64,000 nt of DNA. Source: Amphiscolops sp. MND2022 (taxonomy: Eukaryota). The notes beneath the pieces are model-generated. The model was not told the origin of the DNA. It did no database searches and saw only the letters and a list, made by a program, of their open reading frames with translations. The position numbers and the translations under genes were made by a program. This document shows positions 9,341 through 59,100 of the stretch, piece after piece. The stretch covers positions 39,308,001 to 39,372,000 of the forward strand of contig OZ076409.1 in NCBI GenBank assembly GCA_964187785.1. Reading direction: 5' to 3'. Numbering within the stretch: position 1 is the stretch's first letter; every line of letters starts with the position of its first letter.

Positions 9341-9344
9341 CGGA

Positions 9345-24740: not shown

Positions 24741-24900
24741 TTTCTGTATGATGCCGTAGGCACGTCGTATGGGTTTCTGTATGATGCCGTAGGTACGTCA
24801 TATGGGTTTCTGTATGATGCCGCATATACATCATTGTTATTTCTGTATGATGCCGCATAGCTACCATCTCTTTTTCTGTATGATGCCGCAGGCACATCGC
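24741..24900. repeat. 33-bp tandem array, 5 units, invariant core TTTCTGTATGATGCCG
   Basis: Units start at 24741, 24774, 24807, 24840 and 24873; the 16-bp core is constant and the remaining 17 bp vary. Confidence 0.95.
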
Positions 24901-29679: not shown

Positions 29680-29865
29680 ACTTTTGAGACATTCATTCCA
29701 TCGCCTCCGAGTTATTTTCATTGTATTTACATTTTGTTTTGGATTTCTTTCTGCATTTAGTATGCCATATTTAACCCTGTATGGGTCAATAAGATAAAAA
29801 AGGGCTCTGTAATACTCTAGAATGAGCCAGGACAGAAGAGATGATTTTGTCTTGAAGTTTGTTTT

Positions 29866-36421: not shown

Positions 36422-37327
36422 CTTTACTTGATTGAAAACATCAGTTTACGAAGGAGAAAACAGTTGAATTTCTTCAGTGAGTTGGTGAAAATATCAAACG
36501 GTTGATGATCAAAATTGTAGATGAAAGGTTTACGGATTGAGCAAAAGAGGTACAATTAAGAAGCAACTGTACTCTGTGAAGGTAGAAAACAATTCTGACA
36601 AATTCTCTTTTTGCACTCCTGGTTTCAAAAATGAAAGAATGACACTCCTTTTTATGAGAATCACGGTAGGAAAAGTACAAAAATAACATTACGTCAAAAG
36701 GACGTCATTCTATTTATATCCTGCACTCATCAGAACACGACGTTTAAAACGAACCTAATTGTCCTATTGGACCCTGGAAAGTAGTTATAAAGCGACGTAA
36801 AAAGGTATTCCAAATGATATACAGCACCGTGTATGCATTGTCTATACAGTGTGATTAATCCTGCTGAAAATGTATAATACCGTGTGTGCATCACTTCGGA
36901 AAACGTATGAACCGTATGCAGGAAAACGTATAATAACGCATATGCGTTACTCTTAAAAACGTATAATGCCGCATATCAACATTGCGCAAATCAGTATTAT
37001 GCCGTACATGCGGCACTCTACAAACTATATAATGCCGTATTGCCAAATTGAACGGAAAAGATCATTACTGTATGAATGAAATAGCAAAAACACTATAGCC
37101 CCGAAATTACGTCATATAAAGATGACTCAACTTAAGTTTCTGAATATTCATGACAAAAAGACTAACTTAACATTAACATCAAATCAAAGTGTCTTTGAAT
37201 GAGAAAAAATTTAACATTTACATGACTTCAAAAAACAAAACAAGTCTTCAAGTTTAGTTGGGTTTGGCTGCTTTTCTGTTTGTTCAGGGTTGCACTACGG
37301 CTCCATCGCAGCGCTGGGGCTCCGACA
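35863..37327 (-). repeat. G1 5' LTR (1465 bp)
   Basis: Direct repeat of 21364-22827; TG...CA termini on the minus strand. Confidence 0.95.
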
Positions 37328-38467
37328 GTATGATATCAAAAAAATACCGGATGAACTGACATTGCATATTTCGTATGAATCATCTGTCGAAGAAGTGCGG
37401 GTCGTTGTCATCGTGCATGCCATCAAACCTGTTGTCATAATAAGCGAAATATCATTGCTTGAATATCATCTGACACAATGGCGCTCTGGCAGATCGTTTT
37501 TCGGCTTCAAGCGTATTTTCCCTACTCTCTCTAGAATTTACAAAACCAAAAAACACAAATTTTTTGACGCGCTTCATGACAAAAGCGTTAAAACGACCCA
37601 TTTGCCAAATCCTTCTATATGTATGAATTTTAATCGCATCTCGACCTAAACGTTTCCCCGCTCCTAAGTTAGCACTCGAAATTTCAAATATTGAACAAAT
37701 CTACCTGGAATTGCAATCTGTATGATATCAAAAAAATACCGGATGAACTGATATTGCTGAATGAGAGACATTTATGCTTCAATCAAAACCATGCATAATT
37801 TGAAATTCTTCAAAATCTATGCACAAATGACGTTTCAAATTACGTTGCAAATTGTTTTTGTAGCTTAACAAATAACATAACATCTACGAAATGTGCCCGA
37901 CTAGTAGTTGTAACTAGCTCATTTCCTTCCAAAATTCACATTGAACAAAACGTTTGATACAGAATCCGGATCTTTTTTGTTAATTCCCCCACTAATTTAA
38001 TTTACCCCCAGTTAAGCCGTCAAGTGAACTTATCATTGAATTAATAGCAACAACCAATCAAATTGCAGTAATTCATATCTCTAACTGCAACTGAAACTCA
38101 TCGCTGATAGTGGTGGGGAATTTCCTCGCTTACTGTGGATGGGGTTATTACCGGAAAAGATCCCAGAATTCCAAAGTTATTGATTTTTCAAATTTACACA
38201 ACTCAAACAGAGCGGAAATAATTGAAAGAGACTTGATCGATGAAAGTTAATCAAATGATTGAAAGGAAAATCATTACTTTCTTTAGTTTCGAAAACCTCA
38301 AACTTGCTTTGTTATAAATCAATGAAATGCTTTCTCTACATTTCCAAACTCAAAAACTGAAAAATGCCTGTGAGCAGTAATACAATGCTGTCCAATTTGT
38401 TGACGAGAAATGTACTTGTCCTAGACATCCTGGTGTAAGTTGTTTGGTATTAATTTAAGTGTCTTGT

Positions 38468-40630
38468 TGTTGGAACTCTCGTTCCTAGACAAACTAGTTT
38501 CTTCTAGCTCTACAGTAGGATTCCCGCTACTTTCAGTCCTGGTCGTCGAGTAACCTTGTTCAGAATAAACGCTCGATAAACTGTCAACTTTGGACGACAG
38601 GTTCTCAATCAATTTTAATATCTCACGTTGATTGAGTTCAGTGTCTTTGAGACGTTTGGAAATTCTATTCTCAATTTTATTGGATATGTCTTCAAAATCC
38701 CTTTCCGAAAGTGTGGTGTTTTCGTCGTTAACAGAGCTTGCGGTTTCTACGTCGAACTGGCTAGTCGACTGGTCACTCCTTAACTTCCGTTTTTGAGATT
38801 TCTCAGGCATCTTGTAAAAATAGTGGAGGAACAATATTCCAATTAAACTTGAATCGTTACAAACGTAATGGAGGCTTCAGTTCAATGATTTTCCAAAGTT
38901 TTCCGAAACAAAAGTAATTATATTAAGCAAAGGCAATTAACTCGATTATTACAAAAGTAAAATTTTCAGAGAATGATTAATCAAACGCACTTGAAAAAAT
39001 AAAATTGTCAACTATCTTTTCCTAATCCCGCTTCAGGTATTTATACTTTACGCTAGACACGCGGAGAAAACCCCGCGCGTGAATTCACACCTTGTTCACC
39101 TCGGCGTCCTTTCCGAAGCGGGGAAATCCAAATAAGGTATTCTTCCTCGGGACTCGGCATTCGGTTTCAACCCACTTTAAAGAAAAGTGGGAATTCACTT
39201 CCTGCCGCTTCCCAATTCCGCGTCCCTTTCTTCTTCATTCCCCGCCTTTTCAAGACGCCGAAGGTGAAGTTGGCACTGAAATTCATGAACCTAGCTACTG
39301 AAGCGGGAAAAGGAAATGAAATTATCACCGAACAATCCCAAATTTTACTACTAGTAATTTAAGGGAAACATCAAAGAAATAAACTAACAGCACTGATTTC
39401 TTCTAAATCAGATGATTATGGCCGTTAATTAGCACTTTAAATTGAAGCTAACGAAAAAGTCCTGGGTGAACGCCAGGTAACGAATTTCATTTAGAGTGAC
39501 CTGGCCGTTTGACCGGGCTATTGACTCAACTATGTATTAACAAAACATTGCATGTGAGGACTGGAAAAGGCAGCACTGGGGGTTGTTTTACTATATTATC
39601 GTCAAATATCACATTTAGCAGGGGCAACATTGTTATTAGGTTAACTATAGGGCATGTATTAATTGAATACGTTCGGTCAGCTGTCCAGGCTCTTGTGATA
39701 TTAAAGAAATTTAGCGCTTCGCCTGGGAAGTTGACTCAACTACAAGGTGGACCGAACGCGTTAAAAATACTACAAGCATCATCGATTATTACTCATTGGA
39801 AGTACTTTTGGTATTTAGCTTCTTTTAAGCCACAAAACATTTATCTAAAGTTAGCATCGATTATTTGTACTTGATTGATCAGTTAGAATGACTGAACGAG
39901 CGTCCCGGCGGTCGTCCCAGATTATAAATTTAGAACGGTCGTCCCGGTGGTCGTCCCAGATTATAAATTTAGAACGGTCGTCCCGGCGGTCGTCCCAATT
40001 ATCGGGATCGGCAAATCTTCAATCACACCTTTTCATGCTATAAATATCACGTTTTCGATCTTCACTATTGAATACTGCACAATTTAAGCTTCTTCTAAGC
40101 TTTGGATTTGTATTCACTTCACACGTGACGTCACTTAATATGTTAGCACTTTGATTAATTCGATCGAGCTCCCAGGCGTGCGTCCCAGTCTTTGCTGACT
40201 GGTGGCTTGACGAGTATAGTAGCTGAGTTAATACTGCACATTCGCGCTTGGCGCTGATTGGTTAATTAAAAGGACAGTGAGAATTAATGTGTTTTGCTAC
40301 GCAGATATTGGGACGGTAGGCTGGTCAGTGCGCTGGTTGGAATAACTTCAATCAGCGTATTGGTCAAGCTACTGCAAACAAATCACATTTACAACAAGTT
40401 ATTATTATTTAATTACTTACATATTTATGTATTTCAGGTACTGCAGAGGATTGATGATATTAATATTATGCACTTACAGGGTTGTTCAATATCAATGAGT
40501 GTTTGTTTGTTGATTGTTTCCTTTCAGGTTTGTGATGGTTTATTAGCTTCTTCTTGGTTAATTTCTCCATTTCTTTCCTCTGGCGTTCTCTCTGTTCTTT
40601 TTATTTCACGGCCCTGTGGCGGCTGTGACA
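38468..40630 (-). repeat. G2 3' LTR (2163 bp)
   Basis: Same length as 52142-54304; only 4 substitutions noticed by eye. Confidence 0.97.
39901..39997. repeat. 39-bp tandem repeat (2.5 units) in the G2 LTR; copy at 53575-53671
   Basis: Unit CGTCCCGGCGGTCGTCCCAGATTATAAATTTAGAACGGT. Confidence 0.92.
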
Positions 40631-41228
40631 GTCCCCTTCTTTGATGGGAGACGTCCATTGTGGGAAGAAGTGGTGAAATTGGCCTGAATGGGGAAGAGAT
40701 GGGAGGTTGAAATATAGACTGTACCATTGAATCATAAGACATCCAGGACGAATCTGTTGACCAGTCACTTCCTGAGAAGTAACCTATCGAACTAGAGTTA
40801 CTAGAGATGGGGCTTATTGTCCCATCGTGCGGCCCGTATAGCCAATTGTCCATATTCTCGTAGTTTCTAGGGGGGCTCATGAATTCGTCATCCGGGATAA
40901 TTGGGTTGAAGTTTGTAAATTTCCTGGATGGTAATGTATCTGATTGGGCTGTTTCTAGTATAGATATCGGCGCCGACTCATGGTAAAGGACAATATGTTC
41001 TGTCCCAGTATTGATAATCTCGTAAATATCCTCGATAATTGGTGTTTGAGTATTTTCGCAATTATCACCAAGCGCTGTAGGTGTTGAATGTGCGCGGGGG
41101 TTTACTGGGGCAGCGTCTTGGTCGCGGTCCAAAATGAAATAATCGGTTGAGGAATTGAGTGTCGATGAATTCATTTGATCCGATGAGTAAATAAATTGTA
41201 TGCAATAAATAGTAATAGTTGTAAGCAA
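40524..41228 (-). CDS. G2 ORF3: Ser/Pro-rich protein of unknown function; ends inside the 3' LTR
   Basis: 234-aa ORF at the same position as G1 ORF3; crosses the PPT/LTR junction as Q-R-R-G-L-S. Confidence 0.6.
   Translation of the reverse strand: MLTTITIYCIQFIYSSDQMNSSTLNSSTDYFILDRDQDAAPVNPRAHSTPTALGDNCENTQTPIIEDIYEIINTGTEHIVLYHESAPISILETAQSDTLPSRKFTNFNPIIPDDEFMSPPRNYENMDNWLYGPHDGTISPISSNSSSIGYFSGSDWSTDSSWMSYDSMVQSIFQPPISSPFRPISPLLPTMDVSHQRRGLSQPPQGREIKRTERTPEERNGEINQEEANKPSQT
40631..40642 (-). promoter_or_regulatory. G2 polypurine tract AAAGAAGGGGAC
   Basis: Immediately 5' of the TGTCACA start of the 3' LTR. Confidence 0.85.
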
Positions 41229-41456
41229 TGCTGAGCGGCTGTTCTGCGGAATGGTCGAGTAATTGAATGATAATTCCGTTCTTTTCTTCTGTTCACGCCG
41301 CTTGCATGAATGGGAAAGTTTTCAGCTGGCAGACTGAATGACTTCCATTACGTCATACTAATAGTATCGAATAATAATAATCTCATTGGTTTTACGCCAC
41401 GTCTTCTGTTGGTTTATCTCGGTAGTTATCTTTTAGATTGCTTTGGATAGTAGAAA

Positions 41457-44400
41457 ATGGCTGAGTCGACTGATGAGGATGCCGCGCGCTTTATGCGTTC
41501 GCGGGAGATTGGAGTATTGGAAAGTGAGTTCGAGTCGCGGGGCGGTGATGGAGAAAATACGGAGTGTGAGTTGACTTCTGGGAACGAGCAAGGATTGGGT
41601 GACGACAGTTCTGCTGCTGAGGGTCAATTGGTGATCGCAGAGGAGTCAGCTGATGTTGATCGTGAGGAAGTAGCACAGTCTCCTGTGATTGCTGGTTCTG
41701 CTGTTCGGCCCGCGGCTGGTTTCGGCCAGATTGACGAGAGTGATAGTGGAGAAGGCGATGTTGAAGGAGATGGAAACTGTGGCAACTCGGATCATTCCAC
41801 TGAGAGTGACAACAGACATTCTCTGGATTATCTTTGTGACCGACAGGGTAAGTCCTTTAGCTATTTGTTAGTGGCCAGCTAACAGTTTTATGCTAGTAAA
41901 CAGACGCGTCATTCTTCTAATGGAATATGGGTTTTGTGCAGGTGATAGTGATGATCCTCGTGATGCAGATTTTGTACCCGGTAGTTCTGTCGGTGGTTCT
42001 GGTGGGCGCCGTAGCAAGCGATTGCATTCTGTTCTTCCGGATGAGGCTACGAAACGCTCTCGGGTGTCTGTTGTGGATTCATCAGATGACGAGGGTAGTG
42101 ATGACTCACTGTTTCTGCAGTTGCCCAAATCCAGTAGGTATTCGTTCTGTCATGGTCGTGTTACATCAGGACTGGTGATGTTGAGTATTGATTGTTTTCC
42201 AGGTAATGCTTCGCCGATGCGTGGTGCGGGTACTCACCATGAGTCTGGTCCAGCTTCTGGCGATGTGACTTGCGGGACGTCTGCTAGCGTGGGTGGCACT
42301 GTTGCTTTCGAACCCGGGCCCTCTTCTGGGAAATCTCGGGAGCGCACCCAGCATTCTCGGCCTAGTGTAGGTCTGGAGCGTTCAGTCCTCCACAATGAAT
42401 GGGAGAAAGGTAACTATTTTTGGCGTTATGAACTTCGCTGCTTTATTTCCATGTCCTTCTTCGTATGCTCTGTAGGCTTGTGTCTCATCCTGGTTGGTTT
42501 CTTTAGCGGGTCTCTCGGATATCCCAGCTGGAGCGGTGTGCCTGTCCTCCTCACAAGTGCTGGCTTTCGGGCAGGCTGCTGTTCGACTGGAACGGAGTCA
42601 GAAACGGGAAGATGATCGTAGTCTGTCAAAACGTTAGTTTTCGTTGCATTTGAGTTTATTTATGTGTTTGTTGGTTGATCTATCGTCTGGTCTGTTCTCA
42701 CATTACTGGTTGTCTTCTATCAGTGTATGCTTTGGTGTATTGGTTTGTTTGTGTGTTTAGGTCTCACTGAAATCGTCCGCCTGTTGAAGTCAAAAGGGAT
42801 TTACATGCAGTCCAGACAGTCCCAGATAAGTGTGGAAGAAGAGACAAAACGCCGGCTCTTTGCTAAGTATGAGAGGAGGAAACTGCGACAAGTGGAGCGG
42901 AATGTACTGCGAAAGGAAATGGCTAGTCATCCATTGCCGCAGCTATTTGTGAGTCGCAGATCTGACCGGAATCCCAATGGGTTCAATTGTGCTGTGTGTC
43001 GCCGAGACGTGTCTTTCCTCAGTCGGGGTGAGCCGGAGATTTGGCGTCACTTTACCCGCAAGAGCCATTTCTTAAAGGATCGGCGTTATCGTCTGGACCA
43101 CGAAGATGTACTGTATACTACCCGATTCGATGAAGTGCCTGTGTCGTCTATTTCGGCTGAGTTGCGTGCAGAGATCGAGGAGACTCCTGTGGTAGTCTTG
43201 GGCAAGAAGAATCCTTTCATAGAAGATGAGGTCGATGCGTTAGTTGGGGTGGTGTCCAACGTGCCATCTTCAACTCTGGTTGGAGGCCTATTTGAATTGC
43301 TTCGGAGTGGGGGTTCTCATCGTTTTCTGAGACGGTTGTGGAGCCAATTTCAAGCGGCACTTCCAGTGGATTCAAATTGCGCGCAGGCGACCTGGAGCAA
43401 GACTGAAACGTTGGTGATTATTGGACAGACTCTATACCCCCGGATTCTCCGCCGGGTGCAAGGATGGGTGAAGGATTCCTTTGCCAGTGTTAGTCTGCGG
43501 GAGGATCGTGATGGTTTGCGTTTCAATGTACACTGTTTTGCTAGTGGTACTCTGCGTGAAGTTTGCATTTTGTGGGAACCTAACTCGCCGGGTCTCTGTG
43601 ATTCTGAAATTATTGGTCTGACGCGGATATTTGCAATTCTACCAGCCGGGCAGTCACCTGTTTGCCTGCGAGGGTTTTCATCGACTCTCTTCAATGTGGT
43701 GACCGAATGGTGTGTCGAGCAGTGTCGCCCCAAGCCCATGTTCATTTCTGAATATACCCCAAAAGTATTCAAAGAGCATGTGCAAGAAGCTGGTAAAAGT
43801 GGTTCTAGTGCTCTGGACTGCTTCGCTCTTCTGGACTATCTGTTGTTGCGTTTACAACGTGCTGTAAATCAGTCTTGGATGCTTGGACTTGCGACCTTGC
43901 GCCGTTGCATTCAACAGCGAGATATCCCTTTCACCTCTCTCAGTGTTGTTCTCGATGAGATCGTCAGTCATTGGGGAGATATTAAATTGTTCTTGGGGGA
44001 GGGTGGTGTTGTCTCGTCATCCCGGAGCAAAGTTCCGCAGGACCTGAGTCAGATGGTGTTGGCCGATGACCATATTTTGCCCCGACTGTGTGTGCTTCAA
44101 GTGCTGGTTCTGTGTTTCATGGCCAATTTTGAGAAACAGTTCGTGATGGAAATTACCGACTACAGTTGTCGAAATTATAGTGAATTCTGCTTCTTTTATT
44201 GGAGTCTTCTTGGCAAAGTTAAGAAGCTGTCCGAACTTCCTGAAATTGATGCCTGGAGCGAGTATGTCGGCAAACCCTTGACTACCTGGTCAAACCTCTC
44301 ATATGCGGAGTGTCTGGTTGGAGAGCCCATTGTGGTGAAGGCATTGGTTGGATCTACTGCTGCACTACGTCGTTCTTTCCTTCGCGAGGGTCACTCGCTG

Positions 44401-45384
44401 CTCATGGGATTTTTGAGAGTGTTGAATGAATCTGCCTTTATGAATTCTCGCTTGTCCTCCAGTTTGAGTTGTTTTTCGCCGGATATGTTGCTTCTTGGCG
44501 AGGAATCATATACTGTTGAGCTCTTTCGTGGTCTGGTTGCTTGTTACCTAGAGTGTGGACGTTTGACTGATGTAGAGGCCGAAGGGTCCTGTAATGAATT
44601 CAAGTCCTTCTTAGTGGAATTGCGTCGACGGAATCGCCGAGTGGTGTCCAACATCAAAGACACTTTTAGCTTCATGCGGGAGTCTGAGGCTTTCGGTTGT
44701 CGGGACCATTTGTCGCGTGTTGTTCAGTTGTCCTCAGTTCTGGTGGTACCCCGTGAGGTGTCATATCCTGATGTGGATATCTCGTTGAGTGGTGTAGCTG
44801 TTCCAGCAAAGATTCTTACTTCAGCTATTCTCTCTGTGCAGTCTTACGTTTCCTTCTCTGGGTTCAGTTCCGGGGAGTTGTTGACAAAAGACTGTCTGGA
44901 TGATTTAAAGGTCAATCTCCCTGCTGGAAAGAGTTTCATCGATGACGTTAGTTTCTCTCCATGGACATCGGTATATCAGCATTGCCACCAGGAGTTGTAC
45001 CGCAGTTTGCGTGATCGTTTCGACGCGTATTTCCTGGAACAGGTGGATGATTGGCGTCATCGTCTGGGCACTCTGTCAAAGATGGCTGTTGCAGGTACTG
45101 GTGGTTCTAGTGTTGCGCCGTCTGCCGATGCTGCTGTTGTCAGTCCGCAAGCTGGGGCAAGTGTGTCCCGTGATGCTGGTAGTATTCAAGGTGTTTCTCC
45201 CAGTGCGCCACCTCCTTCAGCTGCTAATGTTGTTGATAAGTCGCTACTGATGTGTAGTCCTGTGCGGTCAAGTGACGTTACCCGGGTTTTGCAGCAAAGA
45301 CGCCAGGAACGGAAAGAAATGTTGTCTTCGAATCAAGCTTCATCGAGTGCTTCAAAGGACAAGAAGAAAGGAAAGAGGCGATGA
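41457..45384 (+). CDS. G2 antisense 5-exon gene: 1174-aa zinc-finger, hAT-transposase-like protein (probably catalytically inactive)
   Basis: Exons 41457-41847, 41942-42133, 42203-42409, 42507-42617 and 42761-45384 total 3525 nt with no internal stop; all four introns are GT-AG, phase 1. Acidic N-terminus, FNCAVCRRDVS..H..RKSH finger, hAT-like blocks and a basic C-terminus KDKKKGKRR. Confidence 0.8.
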
Positions 45385-45706
45385 TGATTTCATAATTTGT
45401 TGGAACGTTGAACTGTGTATCTTTATAGTTTGGTCTTTATTGTTGTTGGCACTTTGTCTACTTTGTTCTGTATTATGTATGTTGTTGAATGGGCTGAGGT
45501 CTTTTAATCAAATGTAGTTAGTATTGCAGCCAAAGAAAAGGGAATGGATATATTTGTCCGTAGTGGGCATGGAGAGTCTGTAGTACATTTTTGGCTCTTT
45601 GTATTGTTTTTCCTTGAGTGCGTAGACGAGTTGTAGGGATTTGAGTCAGTTTTAGGTCAATTGAGTGAGTAGTAGGTGTACCATTTCATGAATTCATATT
45701 GGAAGT

Positions 45707-48700
45707 TTATTCATTTGAGCTAACAACCATTGGGTTGTAGTAGGCGTAGTCCCTTTTCCAATTTGAAGGGGGGTTGCTGCGAAGGTTATATTTGCCTTTG
45801 CGGGGGGAACTAGGCTCTGGGTTTGGGTTGGGTTCTGGTTGGGATTCCTGTTGTTCGGGTTGGGGTTCCGTTAGGATATCGTGGGTGTCATCCTGGGCAA
45901 TGTTTTCTAAGACGTCATGACTATCTGTCGGGTTGATTGCCGATTCGTTGTTGGAATCGTGGTTATGGGTCATCACAAAGTGTTCAAACCCTGATTGCCA
46001 GGCTAGGGCGTATAGATCATCGTGTAGGATTTCGACTTCATCGTCTGGTTGAAAGTCCTTGGTTTGAACTTGTATATCGGAAAGGCGATTTTTCGTGGGA
46101 CATGGTTTCAGTCGTATTCTGTGTAGAATTTGGGTCTTGTTCGTTTGTAATTTACGAACTAGGTAGTTGTTGTTGGGAAGGGTTTTAACTACTACGAATG
46201 GTCCTGTCCATAAATACTCGCGGAAAGGTAGTTTCGATCCCTGGTTGTTTGCCTGGGGGTGTAAGGCGTAGCAGTAGTCGTTTGCTGCTAGGGGGTGGGC
46301 AGAAGCTTTTTTATCGTAGTACTGTTTGTACCGTATGTAGGAGTGGAGGAGGTGTTTGGTTACTGATTGGTGTATCATCCGGGTCTTCTGGACGACTTCT
46401 TCGCCTATGTCTGTTTTTGGGTTTTGAGTTTGGTTCTGTTTGAGACCGAACTTTAAGTCAAGCACATTGTATGGTATTCTGCCATGGAATACTCTACTGG
46501 GTTCGCACCCTAGTGCTGAGTGGTAGGTTGTGTTGTAGTTTAGTGTGGCGGTTGGTACGAACTGGTGCCACATTGTTCTCCTTTCTCCTGTTGATATTTT
46601 CAGGGCTTCTTTTAAGGATGCATGACAGCGTTCTAGGATACCAATTGTTTGGGCATGTTTGGTAGTTGCGTGTCTCAATTGGATGCCTAGAACGCGTGTG
46701 GTGTCAGCCATTACTTCGGACATGAATTGAGTTCCTTTGTCAGTTATGATCGTTGTGGGCAGGTAAGCATGTCTTGTCATTATGTCTACCAGTACTCTTG
46801 CGATCGAGCGGGCATCTATTTTGGTGACACAATAGGTAAATAGATAGCGGGAAAAGACGTCCATGGCGGTGACTATCGCTGTGAATCCGTTGGATGGCTC
46901 GTCGAAGGGGACGATGTCCATTTGTAGGGCATCTTCGGGTCCCATTGCCAGTTTGGACGTGTCGATCATTGGTGGGGTTAGGAGGCGATTGTCTGTTCGT
47001 TTTGTTTGCATGCATTTCATGCATTGGTTGATATGTTTGGCTATCCTTGCTGCGAGACTTGGGTAGTAATACTTTTCTCTGCATTGTTGTATTACTTTCG
47101 TTATTCCCGGGTGTTTGTTATGCATTCCATGGTGTGCCTCGATGAAGGAGTCGACCAGATGCTCCGGGAGTAGTACTTGCAGGTGTTTGACTGTTCCGGT
47201 TTCTCCGAAGTACTGCCGGTATAGCAGCCCGTCCTTGAGTATGATTCTCGATTCTTGCGCTGTGTAACGGAGTGCCCTGTGGTCTGTGGCCATCAGGTGT
47301 TCATCGTATGGTTCCTTGAGGAGGCGCAGTTTGTAGTTTCTGAGGACACTGTCTTGGTCCTGTTGGTGTCGCATGTCAGTTGGGAGGGTGTTTTCTTTGT
47401 CTTCGGTGGTTTTGTTGTGTCTTGTTATTTCCGTTTGAAATATGACTGTGGTGTCTTCTGTTTGGACTGTTTCATTATTTGCTTCTTCTCCTGGCGTTGG
47501 CGGGGTGTCGTTCCCTAGAATTTTCTTGCGGGCTCTTTGCTTCCTCTCCCAAATCTGTTCTTCGGTTTCAATATCATCGTCGGGGAGGAAGTAGAACTGT
47601 TCCTCTTCTGCGACGTTGGAGGATTGAATGTGCACCTCTATTGGTGTTGTTTGAATGTCGTCTCGGATCAAGAGTTGGACTTTTTCCTTTGGGTCTAGGT
47701 CAAGTCGGGAAAGGAAATCAGCTGCGGTGTTCATGCGCCCTGGGACGTGGGCGATCGTAAAGTTGAATTGTAGGACGAAATCGCAGGCGTTCCACAAGGC
47801 TGGTGGTATTATTTTGGTTTGAAAAAACCGTGTGACGGACTTGTTGTCTGTTAGGACGATGACCGGTTTGGTCGATCCCCACAATATGTGGCTGTATTCC
47901 ATGAAGGCGAAATATATAGCCAAGAATTCTTTGGCATATATTGACATTTTGATTTGGGACGGAGAGAATGTCTTGGAACCAAACGCTACCGGGGCGTAAG
48001 TCTTTTTAACTGAGGTCAGTTTTTCATCAGCGTTTTCTTCAATCATGAGGGCGTAGCCTGCATTTTTGAAGTTCGCGTCTGTCATGAGGACGTACTGTTT
48101 GTTGGGTAGTGGTTGTTTCAGCCATAGCCCACAAGCGTTGTCAAGTGCCTTGTTGATGTTGTCAAATGTCCCTATGATCTCGTTTGTGATCTTGATTGGT
48201 TTGTCTGCCTTGACTAATTCGTGGAAGGGTGCTATCTTTTCGGAGAGGCGAGGTATGTAGTTTCGATAATAATTAACGAAACCAATATACCTCTGGAGGC
48301 CCTTTTTGGTTTTTGGGAACGACAGTTTTTGTAGGTAGTTCTTGATCTTGTGACTCTGTGGGGCGATTCCTTCGGGTGAGACTGTTCGTCCTAGGAATTC
48401 GACTTCCTTGGCACCGAACTGACATTTAGCCATTGTCAGACGCAGACCTGCTTCTCTTATGCACTGAAAGACCTCACGCAGGTTGTTCTTCAGCTCCTCG
48501 GCAGTATGGGTAGCTATCCCGATGTCGTCGACGTACTGGGCGCACTTGTCGGCTTTGATGACTCGGTCAAGGTATTCCCGCATAAAGCTCGAGAAGGAGG
48601 AGAGAGATCTGCTGAGCCCTTGTGCGAGTCGCAGGTAGGCGAATGTCCGACTGGCAAAGTTGAACGCCAGGAGTTCCACTGATTTCTGTCCGCCATTTGC

Positions 48701-51081
48701 AGGACATGGTAGGCTTGAGAACAGTCAAGCTTGCAAAACAGTTTCTTTCCGGCTAAATGCTGAGCTGCATCCGAGAGGGTGCTCACAGGGTGATTATTGT
48801 TTATATAATCGTCGGAAATGAGGTTGTTGATCTTTCGTAAGTCAACTAGCAATCGTAGGCGTCCGTTTGGTTTTCTTTGGGCAAATATTGGGCTTGCGTA
48901 CTTGCTGAAAGGGAGCGTGGTGATTATGCCGTAGTAGTGCATTAACGCCAATTCGACTGTCAAGTCGTCTTTCAGGTTGACTGGGCAGGGTAGGCTTTGA
49001 GTGTACGCTGGCTGTTCGGATTTGGGGGTGAGCTTTATTTTGAATTCGTTGTTAATTCCGATATCAAGACGGTGCCTTGCGAAGATATCGTTGTATTCTA
49101 CAAGGATTGCTTCTATGTCCTTTTTGTCTTCATCACTGAGTTGTGAATCCGTCCACTTGAAATTGGATAGGAAAGTTGCTCTGTCCTCAGGGCTGTCATG
49201 AGGATTGAGTTTCTGGATGTTTTCCAGTTCTTCTATCTCTCTCAGTATCCTGCTCTGGATAGGTGTGTGTGTTGATGGGTCTCCTGGGTTTTCCGGTGTG
49301 GGGAACCAGAAATTTTGAACAGTCTGAGGCTTTTCAGACGATTTGAGGAGTTCGTTTACGTATTCTAGCGCCTGTTCGGAATCGTCTTCTGCTAATACCT
49401 TTAGGGCTGCAGAGTTGAGTGGGTGGAGTTGCTTGGCTTCCTGGGGGGATAGAATGGTGAATTCTGCAAGATTTGTGTTCTTTTTGAGGGTGAATGGATT
49501 TGGAGATGTGTTGGTAACCCTGATTTCGATTTTGGAGTTTGTGACTGTTGATAGAGAGCTGGCTACTACCAGTTGGTGTTCTCCGGAGTATGGTTCAGTA
49601 GGGTTGATGATTCCTGTGGTGTTTGTCAGGGTACGTAGGTTGATGCCGGCTTCAATTGTTACACACTGGTCGGGCATGATGGTGAGTTGGGTTTTGGTAG
49701 TGACTTTATGGTGTCTTGAGATTGTCTCGTTATCGTCTGCAGAAATTGCGTAAGTCAGGTGAGGGAAATGTAAGAGGGCCTGACTGACGTCGAGGATTGC
49801 GCTATTGTTTTTAAGAAAGGTGAGTCCGAGGATGGGCCCTGTCATCTTTGTGGCTACGATGAACGTCTCTTTGAACGTCCAGTCGCCTAGTTCAAATTGT
49901 AGTTGAACTGTTTTTGTGGGGGTTTCTATTTCGCCGTTTGCGACCTGCAATTTAAATGTTGGTGGATCCATTTCCTTGAGGATGTTGTCTGGGCTTACCG
50001 TTTTGATTTTCTGGAATTCACTTTCTGGTAAGCAGTTGACGAGTGCTCCGGAGTCAACAAGCGCGTCAACTGAAATGTTGTTGAAATCCATCGGGGCGAA
50101 GAGCATTTTCCTTTTCTTTTTCAGATTGATGGCCGAAAAAATTGGTATGCATTTTTCGCTTGTTTCTGGGTCTGTAATTGCAATTTCATGCAATTGTTTG
50201 TTGGTTTGAATCCATTCTTCATCTTGTTCTAGATTGGTTGGCTCTTCTCTTGAGGTTTGGGTAGTGATGAGTGGGCTGTTTGTCGGTGTTTTAGCTTCTG
50301 TTTGCTGATTGAATTCGCAGGTCAGAGTTCGTTTGACGCGGCGAGTTCTCGGTTGTGTTGTGGGTTGACTTGCAATTGTTTGGTCCCCGGCTTTTGCGTC
50401 GTCAACCAGGGTTTTAGGGGTGGAGTATTTATGTTCAGGACTCTCTGGACTGGAGGGGGACGACGTCATAGCTGCCCGGATTTCATTGGGGGTGGCTGGG
50501 AGTTTCGTGGGTGACTGGAAGTCAACCAGTGGCGATTGATTGTTGTGTTTGAGGATTGACTTGAGGGAAGTCGTTGGGGGTGTTACGATCACAGTGATTT
50601 CTGTGTCGTATTCTTCTTCAGCCTGTGGTTCGGGAGTATGACTGAGGTCGTCTTTCCTTCTTGGAGTTGTCGAGATGTCCATGTTGGTTTTGGCTATGAA
50701 TTCATGAAATGGTACGTTGATTGACTGTCTGAAGACAAGGTTTGTTGAGTCATAGAGAGTGTCGTTGTAGTATGGGTCGCATTCGAAGTCGGGGTCGTAG
50801 ATGTAAGTTTCGGGTGTGGAGCTGGGAAGTAAAGGTCTGCGTGTTGTGTTGTATTGGGTGGGGTTTTGGGTGTACCAGTCTGGATAGGGGAGTTTGTCCA
50901 AGGTGTTTTTGTTGAATTTGATGATGCGTCTTATGAGCCATCGTCGCTGCCAGTCGATCGATGGTTCACCTGAGCATTCCATAAATAATTCCTTGTCGAA
51001 GTCCTTCGGGGGTTCAGATATGGTGTAGTATCTGAAGTCGGTGTAGTCCCCGAAGCGAAGACGTGGCTTTAGTAGTTTTTT
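45707..51081 (-). CDS. pol: G2 Pol (long N-terminal spacer, PR-RT-RH-IN); one frameshift near 48688
   Basis: ALVDSGA; KLDCSQAYH; CAQYVDDIG; VLMTDAN..TDNK; HPGITK..C..C; MDIVP..DVFSRY..TDKGTQF..LERCH; WTGPF. ORFs 48514-50982 and 45707-48679 join if one base is restored in MAD(Q)KSVELLAFN. Confidence 0.96.
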
Positions 51082-52508
51082 GGCTGGTATTGTGGTTGTT
51101 CCACGGTTTGTGGCTGCTGATTTGCTGAAGGTTGTTGGATAGTTTCGGGTGCAGAGTGTTGTGGTAGGGGTATACTGTTGGCGCCTGTTGGTTTAGGCAT
51201 TTTCCACCATGTAGGGCGGTTTGCCCAGTTCGCCCCAGAATAGCAGTCTTTAGTCTCGTGGCTTAATTTGCCACATGTTTCGCAGGGATCGGTGATGTTA
51301 TTGCTGGGGGGTTTTTGGTTCCGTTTGTCTCGGTTTGTCTTCCTGCAGTTGCGGAGGAGGTGGCCCTGGTGTCCGCAGCCAAAGCACGTGCTTGCAGTTT
51401 TCGGGTGTCTCCCCTGATTGGATGTGTTGGCGGGTTCGACATTGTGTATGCCGGTAAATGTAGTGGATTCTGGATTTGCCAATCCGTTGAGCTCCATCTC
51501 CCGCTCTAGGTGCTGGACCATCGTTTCATATGATGCTGTTTCGAGGCGTGCCTGATTTAACACTCTTTTGAGATGTATCGGCATTTTTGCGTAGAAGGAG
51601 GTTTCTATAAACCGGGGTGCATCGTCGGCGTATGCCTCTTGGGCAAGTTTCTGGTAGTTCTCCAAGAAATCTTGGAATGTTTGGTTCGCCGGGTCGAATG
51701 TGAGGTTTTCCCACTTACACCTAGCAGTGGCTATTGACTGGGTTTTTACATATCGTCGTCTGAATCCGGCGATGATGTCGTTCAGGTTGGTTTTGGTTGT
51801 TTCGGTCATGTTCCGAAAGGTTTGCAAGGCGTCTCCTCGCAGTAGGGAGTGGAAATAATGTATTTTCTCTTGCTCCGTTATTTGGGGATGGACCTTCAAG
51901 CTTGTTTGAAACAAATCCTCGAAGAGTTCAAACTTTTCGTTTTTGCCGTCGAATGTTGGCATTGTCGTGGCAAGCGTTTTTGGTAGACGGGGTAATTGTG
52001 CTGTCTGTTGTTGTGTTGCATACAGGGATTCTAACAGCTTGTCAATGATTTCGTCGGAGTGCCTCTGGTTTGGAGGCGGCAGGCTCGAAGACCGGGGGTG
52101 GGTGTTGCTGGAGGTCGGTTCGCTAATTACTCCTGTCACCATGTTGGAACTCTCGTTCCTAGACAAACTAGTTTCTTCTAGCTCTACAGTAGGATTCCCG
52201 CTACTTTCAGTCCTGGTCGTCGAGTAACCTTGTTCAGAATTAACGCTCGATAAACTGTCAACTTTGGACGACAGGTTCTCAATCAATTTTAATATCTCAC
52301 GTTGATTGAGTTCAGTGTCTTTGAGACGTTTGGAAATTCTATTCTCAATTTTATTGGATATGTCTTCAAAATCCCTTTCCGAAAGTGTGGTGTTTTCGTC
52401 GTTAACAGAGCTTGCGGTTTCTACGTCGAACTGGCTAGTCGACTGGTCACTCCTTAACTTCCGTTTTTGAGATTTCTCAGGCATCTTGTAAAAATAGTGG
52501 AGGAACAA
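51069..52508 (-). CDS. gag: G2 Gag (479 aa), first ~122 codons inside the 5' LTR
   Basis: MPTFDGKNEKFELFEDLF..KIHYFHSLLRGDALQTF; two CCHC knuckles CFGCGHQGHLLRNC and CETCGKLSHETKDC. Confidence 0.96.
   Translation of the reverse strand: MFLHYFYKMPEKSQKRKLRSDQSTSQFDVETASSVNDENTTLSERDFEDISNKIENRISKRLKDTELNQREILKLIENLSSKVDSLSSVNSEQGYSTTRTESSGNPTVELEETSLSRNESSNMVTGVISEPTSSNTHPRSSSLPPPNQRHSDEIIDKLLESLYATQQQTAQLPRLPKTLATTMPTFDGKNEKFELFEDLFQTSLKVHPQITEQEKIHYFHSLLRGDALQTFRNMTETTKTNLNDIIAGFRRRYVKTQSIATARCKWENLTFDPANQTFQDFLENYQKLAQEAYADDAPRFIETSFYAKMPIHLKRVLNQARLETASYETMVQHLEREMELNGLANPESTTFTGIHNVEPANTSNQGRHPKTASTCFGCGHQGHLLRNCRKTNRDKRNQKPPSNNITDPCETCGKLSHETKDCYSGANWANRPTWWKMPKPTGANSIPLPQHSAPETIQQPSANQQPQTVEQPQYQPKNY
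51075..51081 (-). promoter_or_regulatory. G2 -1 ribosomal frameshift heptamer A AAA AAC
   Basis: gag ends CCA AAA AAC TAC TAA and the -1 frame is open (KKLLKPRLRFGDY...) into pol. Confidence 0.75.
52130..52141 (-). promoter_or_regulatory. G2 primer-binding site TGGTGACAGGAG
   Basis: Abuts the LTR end ...TCCAACA. Confidence 0.88.
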
Positions 52509-54304
52509 TATTCCAATTAAACTTGAATCGTTACAAACGTAATGGAGGCTTCAGTTCAATGATTTTCCAAAGTTTTCCGAAACAAAAGTAATTATATTAA
52601 GCAAAGGCAATTAACTCGATTATTACAAAAGTAAAATTTTCAGAGAATGATTAATCAAACGCACTTGAAAAAATAAAATTGTCAACTATCTTTTCCTAAT
52701 CCCGCTTCAGGTATTTATACTTTACGCTAGACACGCGGAGAAAACCCCGCGCGTGAATTCACACCTTGTTCACCTCGGCGTCCTTTCCGAAGCGGGGAAA
52801 TCCAAATAAGGTATTCTTCCTCGGGACTCGGCATTCGGTTTCAACCCACTTTAAAGAAAAGTGGGAATTCACTTCCTGCCGCTTCCCAATTCCGCGTCCC
52901 TTTCTTCTTCATTCCCCGCCTTTTCAAGACGCCGAAGGTGAAGTTGGCACTGAAATTCATGAACCTAGCTACTGAAGCGGGAAAAGGAAATGAAATTATC
53001 ACCGAACAATCCCAAATTTTACTACTAGTAATTTAAGGGAAACATCAAAGAAATAAACTAACAGCACTGATTTCTTCTAAATCAGATGATTATGGCCGTT
53101 AATTAGCACTTTAAATTGAAGCTAACGAAAAAGTCCTGGGTGAACGCCAGGTAACGAATTTCATTTAGAGTGACCTGGCCGTTTGACCGGGCTATTGACT
53201 CAACTATGTATTAACAAAACATTGCATGTGAGGACTGGAAAAGGCAGCACTGGGGGTTGTTTTACTATATTATCGTCAAATATCACATTTAGCAGGGGCA
53301 ACATTGTTATTAGGTTAACTATAGGGCATGTATTAATTGAATACGTTCGGTCAGCTGTCCAGGCTCTTGTGATATTAAAGAAATTTAGCGCTTCGCCTGG
53401 GAAGTTGACTCAACTACAAGGTGGACCGAACGCGTTAAAAATACTACAAGCATCATCGATTATTACTCATTGGAAGTACTTTTGGTATTTAGCTTCTTTT
53501 AAGCCACAAAACATTTATCTAAAGTTAGCATCGATTATTTGTACTTGATTGATCAGTTAGAATGACTGAACGAGCGTCCCGGCGGTTGTCCCAGATTATA
53601 AATTTAGAACGGTCGTCCCGGTGGTCGTCCCAGATTATAAATTTAGAACGGTCGTCCCGGCGGTCGTCCCAATTATCGGGATCGGCAAATCTTCAATCAC
53701 ACCTTTTCATGCTATAAATATCACGTTTTCGATCTTCACTATTGAATACTGCACAATTTAAGCTTCTTCTAAGCTTTGGATTTGTATTCACTTCACACGT
53801 GACGTCACTTAATATGTTAGCACTTTGATTAATTCGATCGAGCTCCCAGGCGTGCGTCCCAGTCTTTGCTGACTGGTGGCTTGACGAGTATAGTAGCTGA
53901 GTTAATACTGCACATTCGCGCTTGGCGCTGATTGGTTAATTAAAAGGACAGTGAGAATTAATGTGTTTTGCTACGCAGATATTGGGACGGTAGGCTGGTC
54001 AGTGCGCTGGTTGGAATAACTTCAATCAGCGTATTGGTCAAGCTACTGCAAACAAATCACATTTACAACAAGTTATTATTATTTAATTATTTACATATTT
54101 ATGTATTTCAGGTACTGCAGAGGATTGATGATATTAATATTATGCACTTACAGGGTTGTTCAATATCAATGAGTGTTTGTTTGTTGATTGTTTCCTTTCA
54201 GGTTTGTGATGGTTTATTAGCTTCTTCTTGGTTAATTTCTCCATTTCTTTCCTCTGGCGTTCTCTCTGTTCTTATTATTTCACGGCCCTGTGGCGGCTGT
54301 GACA
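52142..54304 (-). repeat. G2 5' LTR (2163 bp)
   Basis: Direct repeat of 38468-40630. Confidence 0.97.
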
Positions 54305-55467
54305 CTTGTCCTAGTGAACACTTTGAGAACATTTTCAGAGATACTTTTTTGCCACAGCTCTACTACTTGCATTGAAAGTCTTTTTACTGATCCAATTGAA
54401 TAATTTTCACTGGAGCCACCGTCTTAAGGTACCATTTAGGCCCTGTTAACCGTGATAAATATGTATTGGAAGTTGAAAGTTTCATTTCCCTTGGATAATA
54501 AAAGCAAAACATATCAATTAATGAATTACTTTATATACAAAATATCCATTAAAGATTCTTATCCCGAAGAATCAACTAAAAGGCACACTTTTTCGCGACA
54601 TCGAAACATAGAACACGGAGAGACTTTTAAAAAAGTTTCAAAAGTTGATAATTGTCAACGATGTAGAGTCTTTCAAGTTTTTAGTCGGCGTTTTCGAAGA
54701 AAATCCCGACTCTTACAGTGGCTAGTTTTTTTTCGTCAGTTCAACGCGAAACGTCCACTTTTGTGCATTAATGCACATTTACGATCTTTTACCATATGTA
54801 CTTAGTACTTCTTTTTCAACGCATCCAAAGCCTCTAACTTGAGATAAAAAGCCATTCCAAAGCAGAAGGGTCCACTTTTTTCGACACTGAAACTTTCCTC
54901 TTTTTTTCGGCACTGTGAGACTGATTTTTTTCTGAATTTTTTTCAATTGTTCCTCCCATCAATTTTTGATATTTTGCAACAGAATGGATGTTCAAAAAAA
55001 CCCAAAGCGTCCCCCTTTTTACATTTTTCGGCACTATGCGAATTACCGGAAACTTCAAAAAAAAATTCGAAAAAAATTCGGAATTTTTTTTCTCAATTTT
55101 TAGTTTTTTTGAGAGCTTTTGTTGTCTCCAGTTGTAGAAAAAGTGGTTTTCGTTTTCGAGTCTTTTGAGCCTTAGATATGGCGCCGACTTGGGTCGTTCC
55201 CGGCTTGTTCTATATAGGTACGTATTTGTGATTTGGTCATCAAATGCATGTCACAGGGTAAAAGATTGAATTGACTTGACCAATTGTAATTTTTGCATTT
55301 TGAAGGCATTTTCTTTTGAATAACCTACGTCCTTTAGCCAGTGGTAATGAATAAATCCTTCGAAAGTGGTAATGAATAAATCCTCCGAAATCTCGTTGTT
55401 ATGCGCCTAGTTAACAGTAGTTTCAAGTTGGGCAAATTGGCAATTACATACCACATATTTCATTACA

Positions 55468-58455
55468 TCTTCTGGGGATGTCGAACAAGTCGCCAACCTG
55501 TTTTATGAAACATCAGAGGACCCTGCAAGGAAGGATCATGTTAATTTTCATTCCTGAAAGCATTTTCTTTTGCTCTGAAAAATATCCAAGCAGCCTGAAG
55601 AAATTTTTTAGTCAATACAGGCCATAAAACTTTCCTCAAAACAAACGACATTTTTGAAAGTCTGATTCTCCTCTTATCTTTGTAGCAACGTTCTCTTTCA
55701 CTAAAACCCTCCAAAAAAACTATAACGCCTAAAACGTTCGATATAGCTGAAAAATGACAAGAATGAAAAAATTTCAATAATGAAGAAGACGAAACAACAC
55801 GCCCGCTGACAAGCAGGATAGTATCCGTCCAAGCTGTTCTAGCGATGACATATTTTGGAAGCTCAAAAGTATATGCTATACATGTTCGGCATCTTTTCCC
55901 TAGTTCACTCATGTGTTTTCAGATCGTTTTCTCTAAAACTATAGTGGGGTACAGATGAATACATATTAGTTCAACACCAATTACAATATCTGTAACACTG
56001 GCAAAGTTCAGGGCGCAAGCCTTCAGTAAAATCACGCAGAAAGCAACGTCTTTATTCGATACTGGCAAAAAAAATCAAACATGTGAGAAATAAATAAAAA
56101 GTAAGAAACTCCTGTAACTATCGAGCTTGGAAAAGTTATTTTTAGGCATTTCCTTGACTTTTACTGTTGTTGTTCATGTTTTTGCACCCTCTTTTGTTTT
56201 TCGTATGAATCATCTGTCGAAGAAGTGCGCGTCGTTGTCATCGTGCATGCCATCAAACCTGTTGTCATAATAAGCGAAATATCATTGCTTGAATATCATC
56301 TGACACAATGGCGCTCTGGCAGATCGTTTTTTGGCTTCAAGCGTATTTTCCCTATTCTCTCTAGAATTTACAAAACCAAAAAATACAAATTTTTTGACGC
56401 GCCTCATGACAAAAGCGTTAAAACGACCCATTTGCCAAATCCTTCATTATGTATGAATTTTAATCGCATCTCGACCTAAACGTTTCCCCGCTCCTAAATT
56501 AGCACTCGAATTTCCAATTATTGAACAAATCTACCTGGAATTGCAATCTGTATGATATCAAAAAAATACCGGATGAACTGATATTGCTGAATGAGAGACA
56601 TTTATGCTTCAATCAAAACCATGCATAATTTGAAATTCTTCAGAATCTATGCACAAATGACGTTTCAAGTTACGTTGCAAATTGTTTTTGTAGCCTAACA
56701 AATAACATAACATCTACGAAATGTGCCCGACTAGTAGTTGTAACTAGCTCATTTCCTTCCAAAATTCACATTGAACTAAACATTTGATACAGAATCCTGA
56801 TCTTTTTTGTTAATTCCCCCACTATTTTAATTTACCCCCAGTTAAGCGGTCAAGTGAACTTATCATTGAAATAATAGTAACAGCCAATCAAATTGCAGTA
56901 ATTTATATCTCTAACTGCAACTGAAACTCATCGCTGATAGTGGTGGGGAATTTCCTCGCTTACTGTGGATGGGGTTATTACCGGAAAATATTTCCCAGAA
57001 TTCCAAAGTTATTGATTTTTCCAATTTACACTACTCAAACAGAGCGGAAATAATTAAAAGAGTCTTGATCGATGAAAGTTAATCAAATGATTGAAAGGAA
57101 AATCCTTACTTTCTTTAGTTTCAAAAACCTCAAACTTGCTTTGTTATAAAACATTGAAATGCTTTCTCTACATTTCCAAACTCAAAAACTGAAAAATGCC
57201 TGTAAGCAGTAATACAATGCTGTCCAATTTGTTGACGAGAAATGTACTTGTCCTAGACATCCTGGTGTAAGTTGTTTGGTATTTATTTAAGTGTCTTGTC
57301 CAATTGAAAACTTTGAGAACATTTTCAGAGATACTTTTTTTGCCACAGCTCTACTACTTGCATTGAAAGTCTTTTTACTGATCCAATTGAATAATTTTCA
57401 CTGGAGCCACCGTCTTAAGGTACCATTTAGGCCCTGTTAACCGTGATAAATATGTATTGGAAGTTGAAAGTTTCATTGGATATTAAAAGCAAAACATATC
57501 AATTAATGAATTACTTTATATACAAAATATCCAATAAAGTTTCTCACCCCGCAGAATCAACTAAAAGGCACACTTTTTCGCGACATCGAAACATAGAACA
57601 CGGAGAGACTATTAAAAAAGTTTCAAAAGTTGATAATTGTTAACGATGTAGAGTCTTTCAAGTTTTTAGTCGGCGTTTTCGAAGAAAATCCCGACTCTTA
57701 CAGTGGCTAGTTTTTTTTCGTCAGTTCAACGCGAAACGTCCACTTTTTGTGCATTAATGCACATTTACCAACTTTTACCATATGTACTTAGTACTTCATT
57801 TTCAACGCATCCAAAGCCTCTAACATGAGATAAAAAGCCATTCCAAAGCAGAAGGGTCCACTTTTTTCGACACTGAAACTTTCCTCTTTTTTTCCCACTG
57901 TGAGACTGATTTGTTTCCGAAATTTTTTCAATTGTTCCTCCCATCAATTTTTGATATTTTGCAACAGAATGGATGTTCAAAAAAACCCAAAGCGTTCCCC
58001 CTTTTACATTTTTCGGCACTATGCGACTTACCGGAAACTTCAAAAAAATTTCGAAAAAAAATCGGAATTTTTTTTCTCAATTTTTAGTTTTTTTGAGAGC
58101 TTTTGTTGTCTCCAGTTGTAGAAAAAGTGGTTTTTGTTTTCGAGTCTTTTTGAGCCTTAGATATGGCGCCGACTTGGGTCGTTCGCGGCTTGTTCTATAT
58201 AGGTACGTATTTGTGATTTGGTCATCAAATGCATGTCACAGGGTAAAAGATTGAATTGACTTGACCAATTGTAATTTTTGCATTTTGAAGGCATTTTCTT
58301 TTGAATAACGTACGTCCTCTAGCCAGTGTTAATGAATAAATCCTTCGAAAGTGGTAATGAATAAATCCTCCGAAATCTCCTTGTTATGCTCCTAGTTAAC
58401 AGTAGTTTCAAGTTGGGCAAATTGGTAATTACATACCACATATTTCATTACATCT
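55468..58455. repeat. Tandem segmental duplication, copy B (~3 kb; empty-site copy)
   Basis: Has single GTATG (56550-56554) and single CTTGT (57295-57299) where copy A carries G1 and G2. TCTT occurs at the junctions. Confidence 0.9.
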
Positions 58456-59100
58456 TTTCGGACGTTTAACCAAGCCACATATGTGATCATATATTCCACT
58501 AGTTGATACGAACGACTTATAGCCACCAAGAAAAGTTTTTGCAAATTCGAGAAACATAGAAATGTTTTCAAGAAAAAAAATTTGCCCAATTCTCGTCCTT
58601 CAGCAAAATCTAGAGCTCTGGACTTGAGTTCCCTCAAAAATTGTACCCTAGGGAGATGGGACATGGAGCGATCGTTTTCAAAATATGGAGACCTACTATC
58701 TGACAAACGCCATTCGGGAAACAAATTTTCTGCATATGCAACTAAAAAATGAACGTGTTTGGTCGCCTTTTCCACTGTTTTTACGTTTTATAGGTTAACT
58801 TACTACCTTCCCGTTCAATTATTGCGTCTCTCAATGAATTATTGTCTCCGCAATATTTGGCCATTCCTGATCATAATCTTTAAAATTTATTTCTATTCTG
58901 AAAATAATTTTTTCACAGTTTTTTTGTAAGATATCAGATCATTTCTAAAACATACTGACAGCCGGGAACTTTTCATCGCAAAAGAATAATCATTTATTGA
59001 ATCGATTTTTTGCTCATTCTCATCAATAGCCATTATCATTAATACAGTCAAAACATGCATGTTTGAATTAAGTTGCATAAAAATTGAATTTTTGTTTCAT

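Follow-up and report, generated by a model that had tools for sequence, protein, structure and literature searches.

Two LTR retrotransposons in the window, the whole stretch of 64,000 nucleotides that was analysed, carry a gag reading frame that opens inside the 5′ LTR, runs through the LTR end and the primer-binding site (PBS) and continues into the capsid-coding region. We consider it likely, with a probability of about 0.8, that this gag is transcribed from a TATA box 235–297 nt upstream and gives one long Gag from the first ATG, with a predicted coiled coil in the part that the LTR encodes. The element boundaries, the open frame and its conservation in relatives are established directly; the remainder we infer. 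The gag frame opening in the LTR is a real feature, replicated across a large lineage and, judging from the sequences, probably functional.

The two elements, termed G1 and G2, lie on the minus strand, as do the features given below without a strand. G2 (38468–54304, 15.8 kb) and G1 (21364–37327, 16.0 kb) both have TG..CA ends and are flanked by 5-bp target-site duplications (TSDs), CTTGT (54305–54309 and 38463–38467) and GTATG (37328–37332 and 21359–21363), respectively. The 5′ LTR of G2 (52142–54304, 2163 bp, TG..CA) is 99.8% identical to the 3′ copy (38468–40630, 2163 bp), with four differences. The corresponding LTRs of G1 (35863–37327, 1465 bp, TG..CA, and 21364–22827, 1464 bp) are 97.9% identical with 31 differences. 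The PBS, TGGTGACAGGAG, is the same TGG-starting 12-mer in both elements (G2 52130–52141, G1 35851–35862) and adjoins the terminal CA of the 5′ LTR with zero spacer; in G2 it encodes part of M-V-T-G-V. A polypurine tract (PPT), at 40631–40643 in G2, ends 2 nt before the 3′ LTR, a gap of the same length in G1. The att spacing is asymmetric, with 0 nt between CA and the PBS as against 2 nt (AC) between the PPT and TG (52140–52143 vs 40629–40643, and the equivalents in G1). Direct LTRs, TG..CA ends, TSDs, PBS and PPT, the features by which LTR retrotransposons are recognised, were thus all found in G1 and G2.

The window contains nested repeats and at least three LTR elements. G1 and G2 sit approximately 1.1 kb apart inside one copy of a tandem unit of about 2985 bp (20267–21363, 37328–38467, 54305–58456), an intact neighbouring copy of which occupies 55468–58456, and a portion of this unit of about 360–400 bp is duplicated around G1. 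A 39-bp tandem repeat in about three copies lies in the upstream part of the G2 LTR (53568–53676 and 39894–40002). A third LTR element, a decayed Gypsy element on the plus strand (9176–14840), has LTRs of about 165 bp and a non-canonical 5′ LTR end; the ATG of its gag ORF, at 9345, is formed by A+TGG just past the repeat and has an in-frame stop upstream. No tRNA genes were found in the 64,000-nt window.

The domain order revealed by Pfam is Gag, aspartyl protease, RT, RNase H and integrase. The Gypsy-type profiles matched are RT_RNaseH (E 8.9e-16), RT_RNaseH_2 (E 1.5e-12) and Integrase_H2C2 (E 2.1e-9), together with Integrase_p58_C at E 1.4e-5, which is below its curated cut-off. By this pol order and the RNase H and integrase profiles, G1 and G2 are members of Ty3/Gypsy (Metaviridae). 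Membership of Ty1/Copia is ruled out, as integrase comes after RNase H rather than upstream of RT. The profiles associated with BEL/Pao are DUF1759 in Gag and Peptidase_A17, DUF1758 and DUF5641 in pol; DUF1759 is matched by the Gag of G2 but the BEL-type pol families are absent at E ≤ 0.05 in Pfam, and assignment to BEL/Pao (Belpaoviridae) was rejected. The pol of each element is split into several ORFs. In G2 (PR-RT-RNaseH-IN, 45707–50982) there are two, 48514–50982 and 45707–48583, with the frame break in RT. A sequence search of the PDB with the first pol ORF gave no match. In G2, pol lies in the −1 frame relative to gag and the two overlap where gag ends (50982–51120, minus strand); the first pol ATG is at 50982, and this arrangement is consistent with ribosomal frameshifting.

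The gag ORF of G2 (51069–52484, 471 aa) begins with an ATG at 52484, which leaves 343 nt to the LTR end. The preliminary description correctly placed this start inside the LTR, but its figure of about 370 nt corresponds to a TTG in the same frame, at 52508. The G1 ORF (34739–36421, 560 aa) has its ATG at 36421, 559 nt before the LTR end, matching the earlier value of about 560 nt. The LTR encodes codons 1–114 and the A of codon 115 in G2 (52142–52484), and codons 1–186 in G1 (35863–36421). At the junction the terminal A of the LTR and the TG of the PBS form an ATG, Met115 in G2 (52140–52142, within S-S-N-M-V-T-G) and Met187 in G1 (35861–35863, within D-Y-H-M-V-T-G), so both frames do cross the LTR end as (N/H)-M-V-T-G, as first described. 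A dual-coding role had been assigned to U5, the att site and the PBS. This holds for the att end and the PBS as well as for the distal LTR, whose coded stretch would be either U5 alone or R plus U5. The complete G2 Gag comprises a basic N-terminus, a helix (residues 36–80), a linker, M115-V-T-G, a capsid region at approximately 166–335 and two CCHC knuckles, with Pfam matches to DUF1759 (E 1.5e-8) and Retrotrans_gag (E 3.1e-5).

A stop-free frame of the observed length arose in seven of 20,000 base shuffles for G2 and in none of 20,000 for G1, and the two other frames of the LTR-coded segment carry 6 and 18 stops in G2, 14 and 24 in G1. That both elements cross in the same frame is only modest evidence, because the TGA in the PBS blocks one frame in three and the elements are related; the two Gags share 39% identity over 341 columns covering capsid and knuckles. 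The 3′ LTR of G2 contains the same 114-codon frame, which continues for 18 codons into the flanking DNA before a stop, and the 3′ copy of the coded segment in G1 has a 1-nt deletion.

Is this layout peculiar to two insertions? Homologue searches at E ≤ 0.001 returned 3419 proteins for G2 Gag and 1990 for G1 Gag, and the top 120 of each were examined. At least 100 residues stand ahead of MVT[G/E] in 86 of the G2 list and 111 of the G1 list, fewer than 100 in 12 and 8, respectively, whilst three and none start directly at the motif and 19 (fragments or variants) and one lack it. These counts favour full-length forms, the lists being ranked by score and length-filtered. A less biased sample is provided by a profile search of 50%-identity representatives. 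Among the 150 listed, 114 (mostly fragments) are without the motif in their first 300 residues; the other 36 have MVTG, 26 being extended, 12 of them by at least 100 residues, and 10 starting at the motif. Two short forms starting at MVTG (P0255, P0285) cluster with full-length proteins, and the remaining ones may be broken copies or families truly starting there. Distant families have 126 to 223 residues ahead of the motif, again with a basic patch at the N-terminus. Between the basic motif and the junction Met, 11 different distances occur in 83 G2 homologues and 13 in 97 G1 homologues, with the frame kept; frame conservation in the LTR segment, whose absence the preliminary description named as a refutation, is seen across many relatives.

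The LTR ends of the homologues were inferred from protein motifs, and two independent signs place them at MVTG. The residue before MVTG is His, Asn, Asp or Tyr in 268 of 269 cases, compared with 578 of 3377 before other Met residues; these four have the xAC codons that are required where an LTR ends in ACA. The second sign comes from the cluster represented by P0085, which has 37% identity to G2 Gag. Here P0279 and the first of the repeats in P0274 track P0085 as far as residue 127 and part from it precisely at the junction Met128. The departing residue in both is Thr, with a codon beginning with the last A of the LTR. Divergence at the junction occurs in these two of the 14 other listed members, and the pattern is as would be expected of a 3′, solo or duplicated LTR. 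In P0274 the LTR-coded segment is present in full as two in-frame copies, and P0301, P0322 and P0422 show junction-like motifs repeated two or three times in tandem, in frame, as repeated att/PBS units. No related loci were found in the metagenome contigs or viral contigs searched. On these protein sequences the layout is lineage-wide, with an LTR-start gag across a large Gypsy lineage.

The LTR part of Gag looks to be selected as protein. Identity to G2 among 33 near-full-length relatives is 0.89 in the basic patch, 0.79 in the helix and 0.87 in the capsid, with 0.60 and 0.37 in the linkers; for G1, with 81 relatives, the values are 0.88, 0.68 and 0.89, with 0.51 and 0.60 in the linkers. In an alignment of 31 sequences, hand-picked from the 120 top G2 homologues and spanning 35–86% identity, positions 34, 39, 42, 46, 50, 54, 64, 65 and 68 are I, L, V, M or F in every sequence, exchanging freely. 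The spacing of these nine invariant-hydrophobic positions is 3-4-4 and 3-4, and most positions between them are hydrophobic in 0–3%. Comparison of the coded segment of G2 with two contigs from run X1 gave 10 synonymous and 4 non-synonymous differences (p = 0.006, against an expected synonymous share of 0.35 for transitions), although we caution that this concerns 14 sites, one run and two short depth-2 contigs. These contigs cover parts of the segment, and differences near their ends were left out. The LTR pair of G1 displays 5 synonymous and 9 non-synonymous changes, with a frameshift in the 3′ copy. This is near the neutral expectation (0.20–0.33); the changes represent neutral drift after insertion and lend no support to selection. 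RNA folding across the two LTR–PBS junctions is no better than that of shuffles (z −0.64 and −0.51), and a search of Rfam with 50800–54400 gave one match only, at chance level.

AlphaFold places one helix in each LTR part. The G2 helix, a predicted coiled coil, comprises 45 residues (36–80; 52245–52379) and includes a block with pLDDT 83–91 at residues 41–70; in G1 (residues 61–105; 36107–36241) the block has pLDDT 88–93 at residues 71–100, and the flanks are disordered in both. The two heptad peptides quoted in the preliminary description were found in the LTR-coded parts, and the coiled-coil-like character ascribed to them agrees with the predicted coiled-coil-type helix and, for G2, with the hydrophobic periodicity in 31 of 31 sequences. 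Three copies of G2 residues 28–84 were modelled as a parallel bundle with a score of 0.74, the best control giving 0.02, and with contact agreement of at least 94% between runs and pLDDT of at least 80. In calibration, 21 of 30 proteins with structures solved as pairs attained this mark, as did none of 23 single chains; for eukaryotic proteins the counts were 17 of 29 and none of 30. The calibration set consists of two-copy, microbial cases, so the three-copy model is outside its chain number. The modelling supports self-association of the G2 helix, with the number of chains not fixed by the model.

The domain downstream in G2 Gag has its best fold matches, both weak, with the capsids of PNMA2 (E 1.7e-3) and dArc1 (E 1.1e-2). 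Gag residues 1–165 gave no match above 0.78 in the ESM Atlas. Homology between the LTR-coded parts of G1 and G2 was not detected by hhalign (probability 0.19%; score 12.5, within column-shuffled controls that reach 15.4), and G2-like and TTRSQ-type families align weakly (probability 86%, E 5e-6, 15 columns). The LTR parts of G1 and G2 have the same architecture either through fast divergence or as separate extensions.

Ahead of the gag ATG each LTR has one TATAAATA (52719 and 36718), and a leader rich in T comes after it. The candidate TATA boxes assigned by motif scan are at 52714–52719 (TATAAA) in G2 and 36713–36718 in G1. They suggest that transcription starts upstream of the gag ATG, though it need not start far upstream in the LTR as had been proposed, since the distances to the ATG are 235 and 297 nt. 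AAG precedes the gag ATG in both elements. From TATA box to gag ATG the G2 leader contains no ATG and the G1 leader two, one at 36689, near the expected start, and one at 36441 that opens a 5-codon frame.

Below the TATA boxes, AATAAA hexamers occur only within the coded part, in frame as Asn-Lys in G1 and G2. The sole one between the TATA box and the LTR end of G2 (52350–52355, Asn44-Lys45) is a candidate poly(A) signal and, if it is the signal, the gag ATG would lie in R. The Asn-Lys pair is kept in 21 of 49 close G2-like relatives and in 74 and 43 of 90 at two sites in G1, and no GT-rich element was found downstream of the in-frame hexamer. Its poor conservation and the lack of such an element after it weaken the case for the in-frame hexamer as the poly(A) signal. 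In animal Metaviridae LTRs, as described in PMC3601003, AATAAA is usually retained and in some groups a TATA motif can double as the poly(A) signal.

Expression of the long Gag would probably proceed as follows. Pol II would initiate some 30 nt below the TATA box, after which ribosomes would scan a T-rich leader of 200–270 nt to the first AAG-ATG. In the product the basic N-terminal patch from the LTR part may act in nuclear import or in binding nucleic acid or membrane, and the 45-residue LTR-encoded helix would oligomerise Gag upstream of the capsid domain. M-V-T-G would serve passively as a linker, selected neither as a peptide nor as a start site, and would be conserved because integrase needs the CA of the DNA end and because the primer tRNA has to pair with the RNA. 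Reverse transcription should not be hindered in principle; minus strong-stop DNA would be longer, roughly 550–830 nt, and would copy the first gag codons into both LTRs.

The junction ATG was suggested in the preliminary description to be the start of a second, shorter Gag. A long form would then begin at the LTR ATG and a short one at the junction, by leaky scanning or from a second transcription start further downstream, and the short one would regulate assembly like p22 of Ty1. In all cases seen, the junction ATG shares the gag frame and precedes the entire capsid. Its context in G2 is a strong one, with A at −3 and G at +4, and no ATG intervenes in any frame in the 343 nt of G2 before the junction (0.1% of shuffles), which would permit leaky scanning. 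In addition, 10 of the 36 motif-bearing representatives start at the junction Met and Ty1 is described as making an N-truncated Gag from an internal transcript (PMC4974528). However, the letters of the ATG and the G at +4 are all forced by att and PBS and, as CA and TGG are both required for replication, the codon would be conserved even without function. G1 has 10 other ATGs, four in frame, between its first ATG and the junction; 2–8 Met residues precede the junction in 90 of 90 G1-family proteins and at least one intervenes in 53 of 80 G2 homologues; and His, which puts a pyrimidine at −3, precedes the junction Met in 150 of 269 cases. These comparisons lean against the suggestion, and we judge two isoforms, with the regulatory role for the short one, to be unlikely. 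It is very improbable that Gag truly starts at the junction and that the upstream frame is an untranslated accident or relic, conserved for signals that U5 carries as RNA or DNA. Capsid and zinc knuckles do lie entirely downstream of the junction and some database proteins begin at MVTG, but the stop-free run, the in-frame length variation, the synonymous excess and the I/L/V/M/F periodicity are signatures at the level of protein, and RNA folding at the junction is not unusual (z −0.64 and −0.51). A mis-set or mis-assembled LTR boundary, with an ordinary gag duplicated at the 3′ end, has nothing in its favour beyond the unusual layout, and is refuted by the TG..CA ends, perfect 5-bp TSDs and adjoining PBS and PPT in two independent insertions; relatives also diverge at the same codon.

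A further possibility involves the other end of the elements. Sense ORFs cross the PPT into the 3′ LTR in both (G2 40524–41174, minus strand, 216 aa; G1 22784–23842, minus strand, 352 aa). A stop-free frame of this kind arose in none of 20,000 shuffles, and the two cross in the same frame (G-L-S-Q/E-P), so that the other LTR junction is also dual-coding. The LTR-coded segment could then be a first exon common to Gag and to a spliced accessory protein, for example one joined to the PPT-crossing ORF, in the manner of Cer1, whose CERV and GAG are described as sharing exons, a leucine zipper and a KRKK signal (PMC10309623). These otherwise unexplained ORFs in G1 and G2 invite such a reading, but they have neither mutual similarity nor a Pfam match, and we hold it to be quite unlikely; it supplements the single long Gag as the best explanation and does not replace it.

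On the opposite strand, between pol and the 3′ LTR, G2 has an intact ORF of 885 aa (42727–45384, plus strand) without a Pfam match, and the Atlas neighbours of its product include hAT-transposase-derived ZBED/FAM200-type clusters (0.90–0.92). A 241-aa ORF directly upstream (41890–42615, plus strand), also without a Pfam match, is possibly its first exon. The G1 antisense gene, between pol and 3′ LTR (26156–27103 and 29062–29679, plus strand), matches the G2 counterpart with E 4e-7. The sequences suggest a DNA-transposon-like antisense gene in two divergent Gypsy families.

How does this compare with known systems? In retroviruses gag starts downstream of the PBS, and the preliminary description, which took this as the normal arrangement, is right in that respect; Ty1 and Tca5 are published exceptions. 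In Ty1 (Saccharomyces, Ty1/Copia, Pseudoviridae) the PBS directly abuts the LTR. It is described as lying inside the GAG ORF (PMC4974528), and the RNA is reported to have a 53-nt 5′ UTR with the PBS at nt 95–104, so that about 14 codons precede it (PMC5454406). At the sequence level G1 and G2 have this same layout, with the gag start codon in the 5′ LTR and the PBS within the gag frame. They differ in belonging to another superfamily and in scale, some 41 nt of coding sequence before the PBS in Ty1 as against 343–559 nt here and up to about 220 codons in relatives, and the Ty1 LTR has no separate predicted domain. Tca5 of Candida albicans, a Ty5-like Copia element, is described as having a single ORF with the first ATG 382 bp into a 685-bp LTR, about 100 codons being inside the LTR, and an in vivo start site that is unknown (PMC4139406). 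Tca5 is a low-copy, single element, unlike the large Gypsy lineage with protein-level conservation described here, and that review, in its account of Tca5, mentions neither conservation nor structure for the stretch that the LTR encodes.

With Ty3/Gypsy elements G1 and G2 share the PR-RT-RNaseH-IN order and a Gag capsid weakly like those of PNMA2 and dArc1, but the PBS of Ty3 is described as adjacent to the 5′ UTR, whereas in G1 and G2 Gag starts in the LTR. Cer1 of C. elegans, also Gypsy, is similar in its description: ahead of a capsid-like domain its GAG has a long N-terminal region that contains a leucine zipper and a basic signal. The account in PMC10309623 does not place the start codon in the LTR. 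By layout G1 and G2 work like Ty1 and Tca5, and by pol they belong to Ty3/Gypsy, not to Copia. Literal matching among open-licence papers found none on a Gypsy lineage with 110–220 LTR codons and a conserved helix. The principle of an LTR-start Gag is already known; what appears to be new is its scale, along with the domain that the LTR is predicted to encode in Gypsy.

A more speculative extension, to which we give little credence, is that the LTR is a self-contained mini-gene with TATA box, leader, ATG, basic signal and trimeric coiled coil, which provides LTR-encoded control of copy number. If so, 3′ and solo LTRs would emit a capsid-less N-terminal fragment of Gag or a fusion with downstream host sequence, the capsid-less fragment would co-assemble with full Gag through the coiled coil and damp particle formation, and the att/PBS ATG would yield a complementary coil-less Gag. 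Two predicted products have the appropriate shape, the frame of 132 codons in the 3′ LTR of G2 and P0279.

The long Gag opening in the LTR, our preferred reading, has practical and biological consequences. Annotation that translates the internal region alone would shorten these Gags by 110–220 residues, and the N/H/D/Y-M-V-T-G motif allows the end of the LTR and the PBS to be recognised in a protein sequence by itself. The exception represented by Ty1 and Tca5 is extended to a very abundant Ty3/Gypsy lineage, given the 3419 and 1990 database matches, and an LTR can carry a conserved, predicted protein domain rather than a few codons. A solo LTR would then be a portable module of promoter, start codon and oligomerisation domain, which bears on host gene fusions and on self-restriction.
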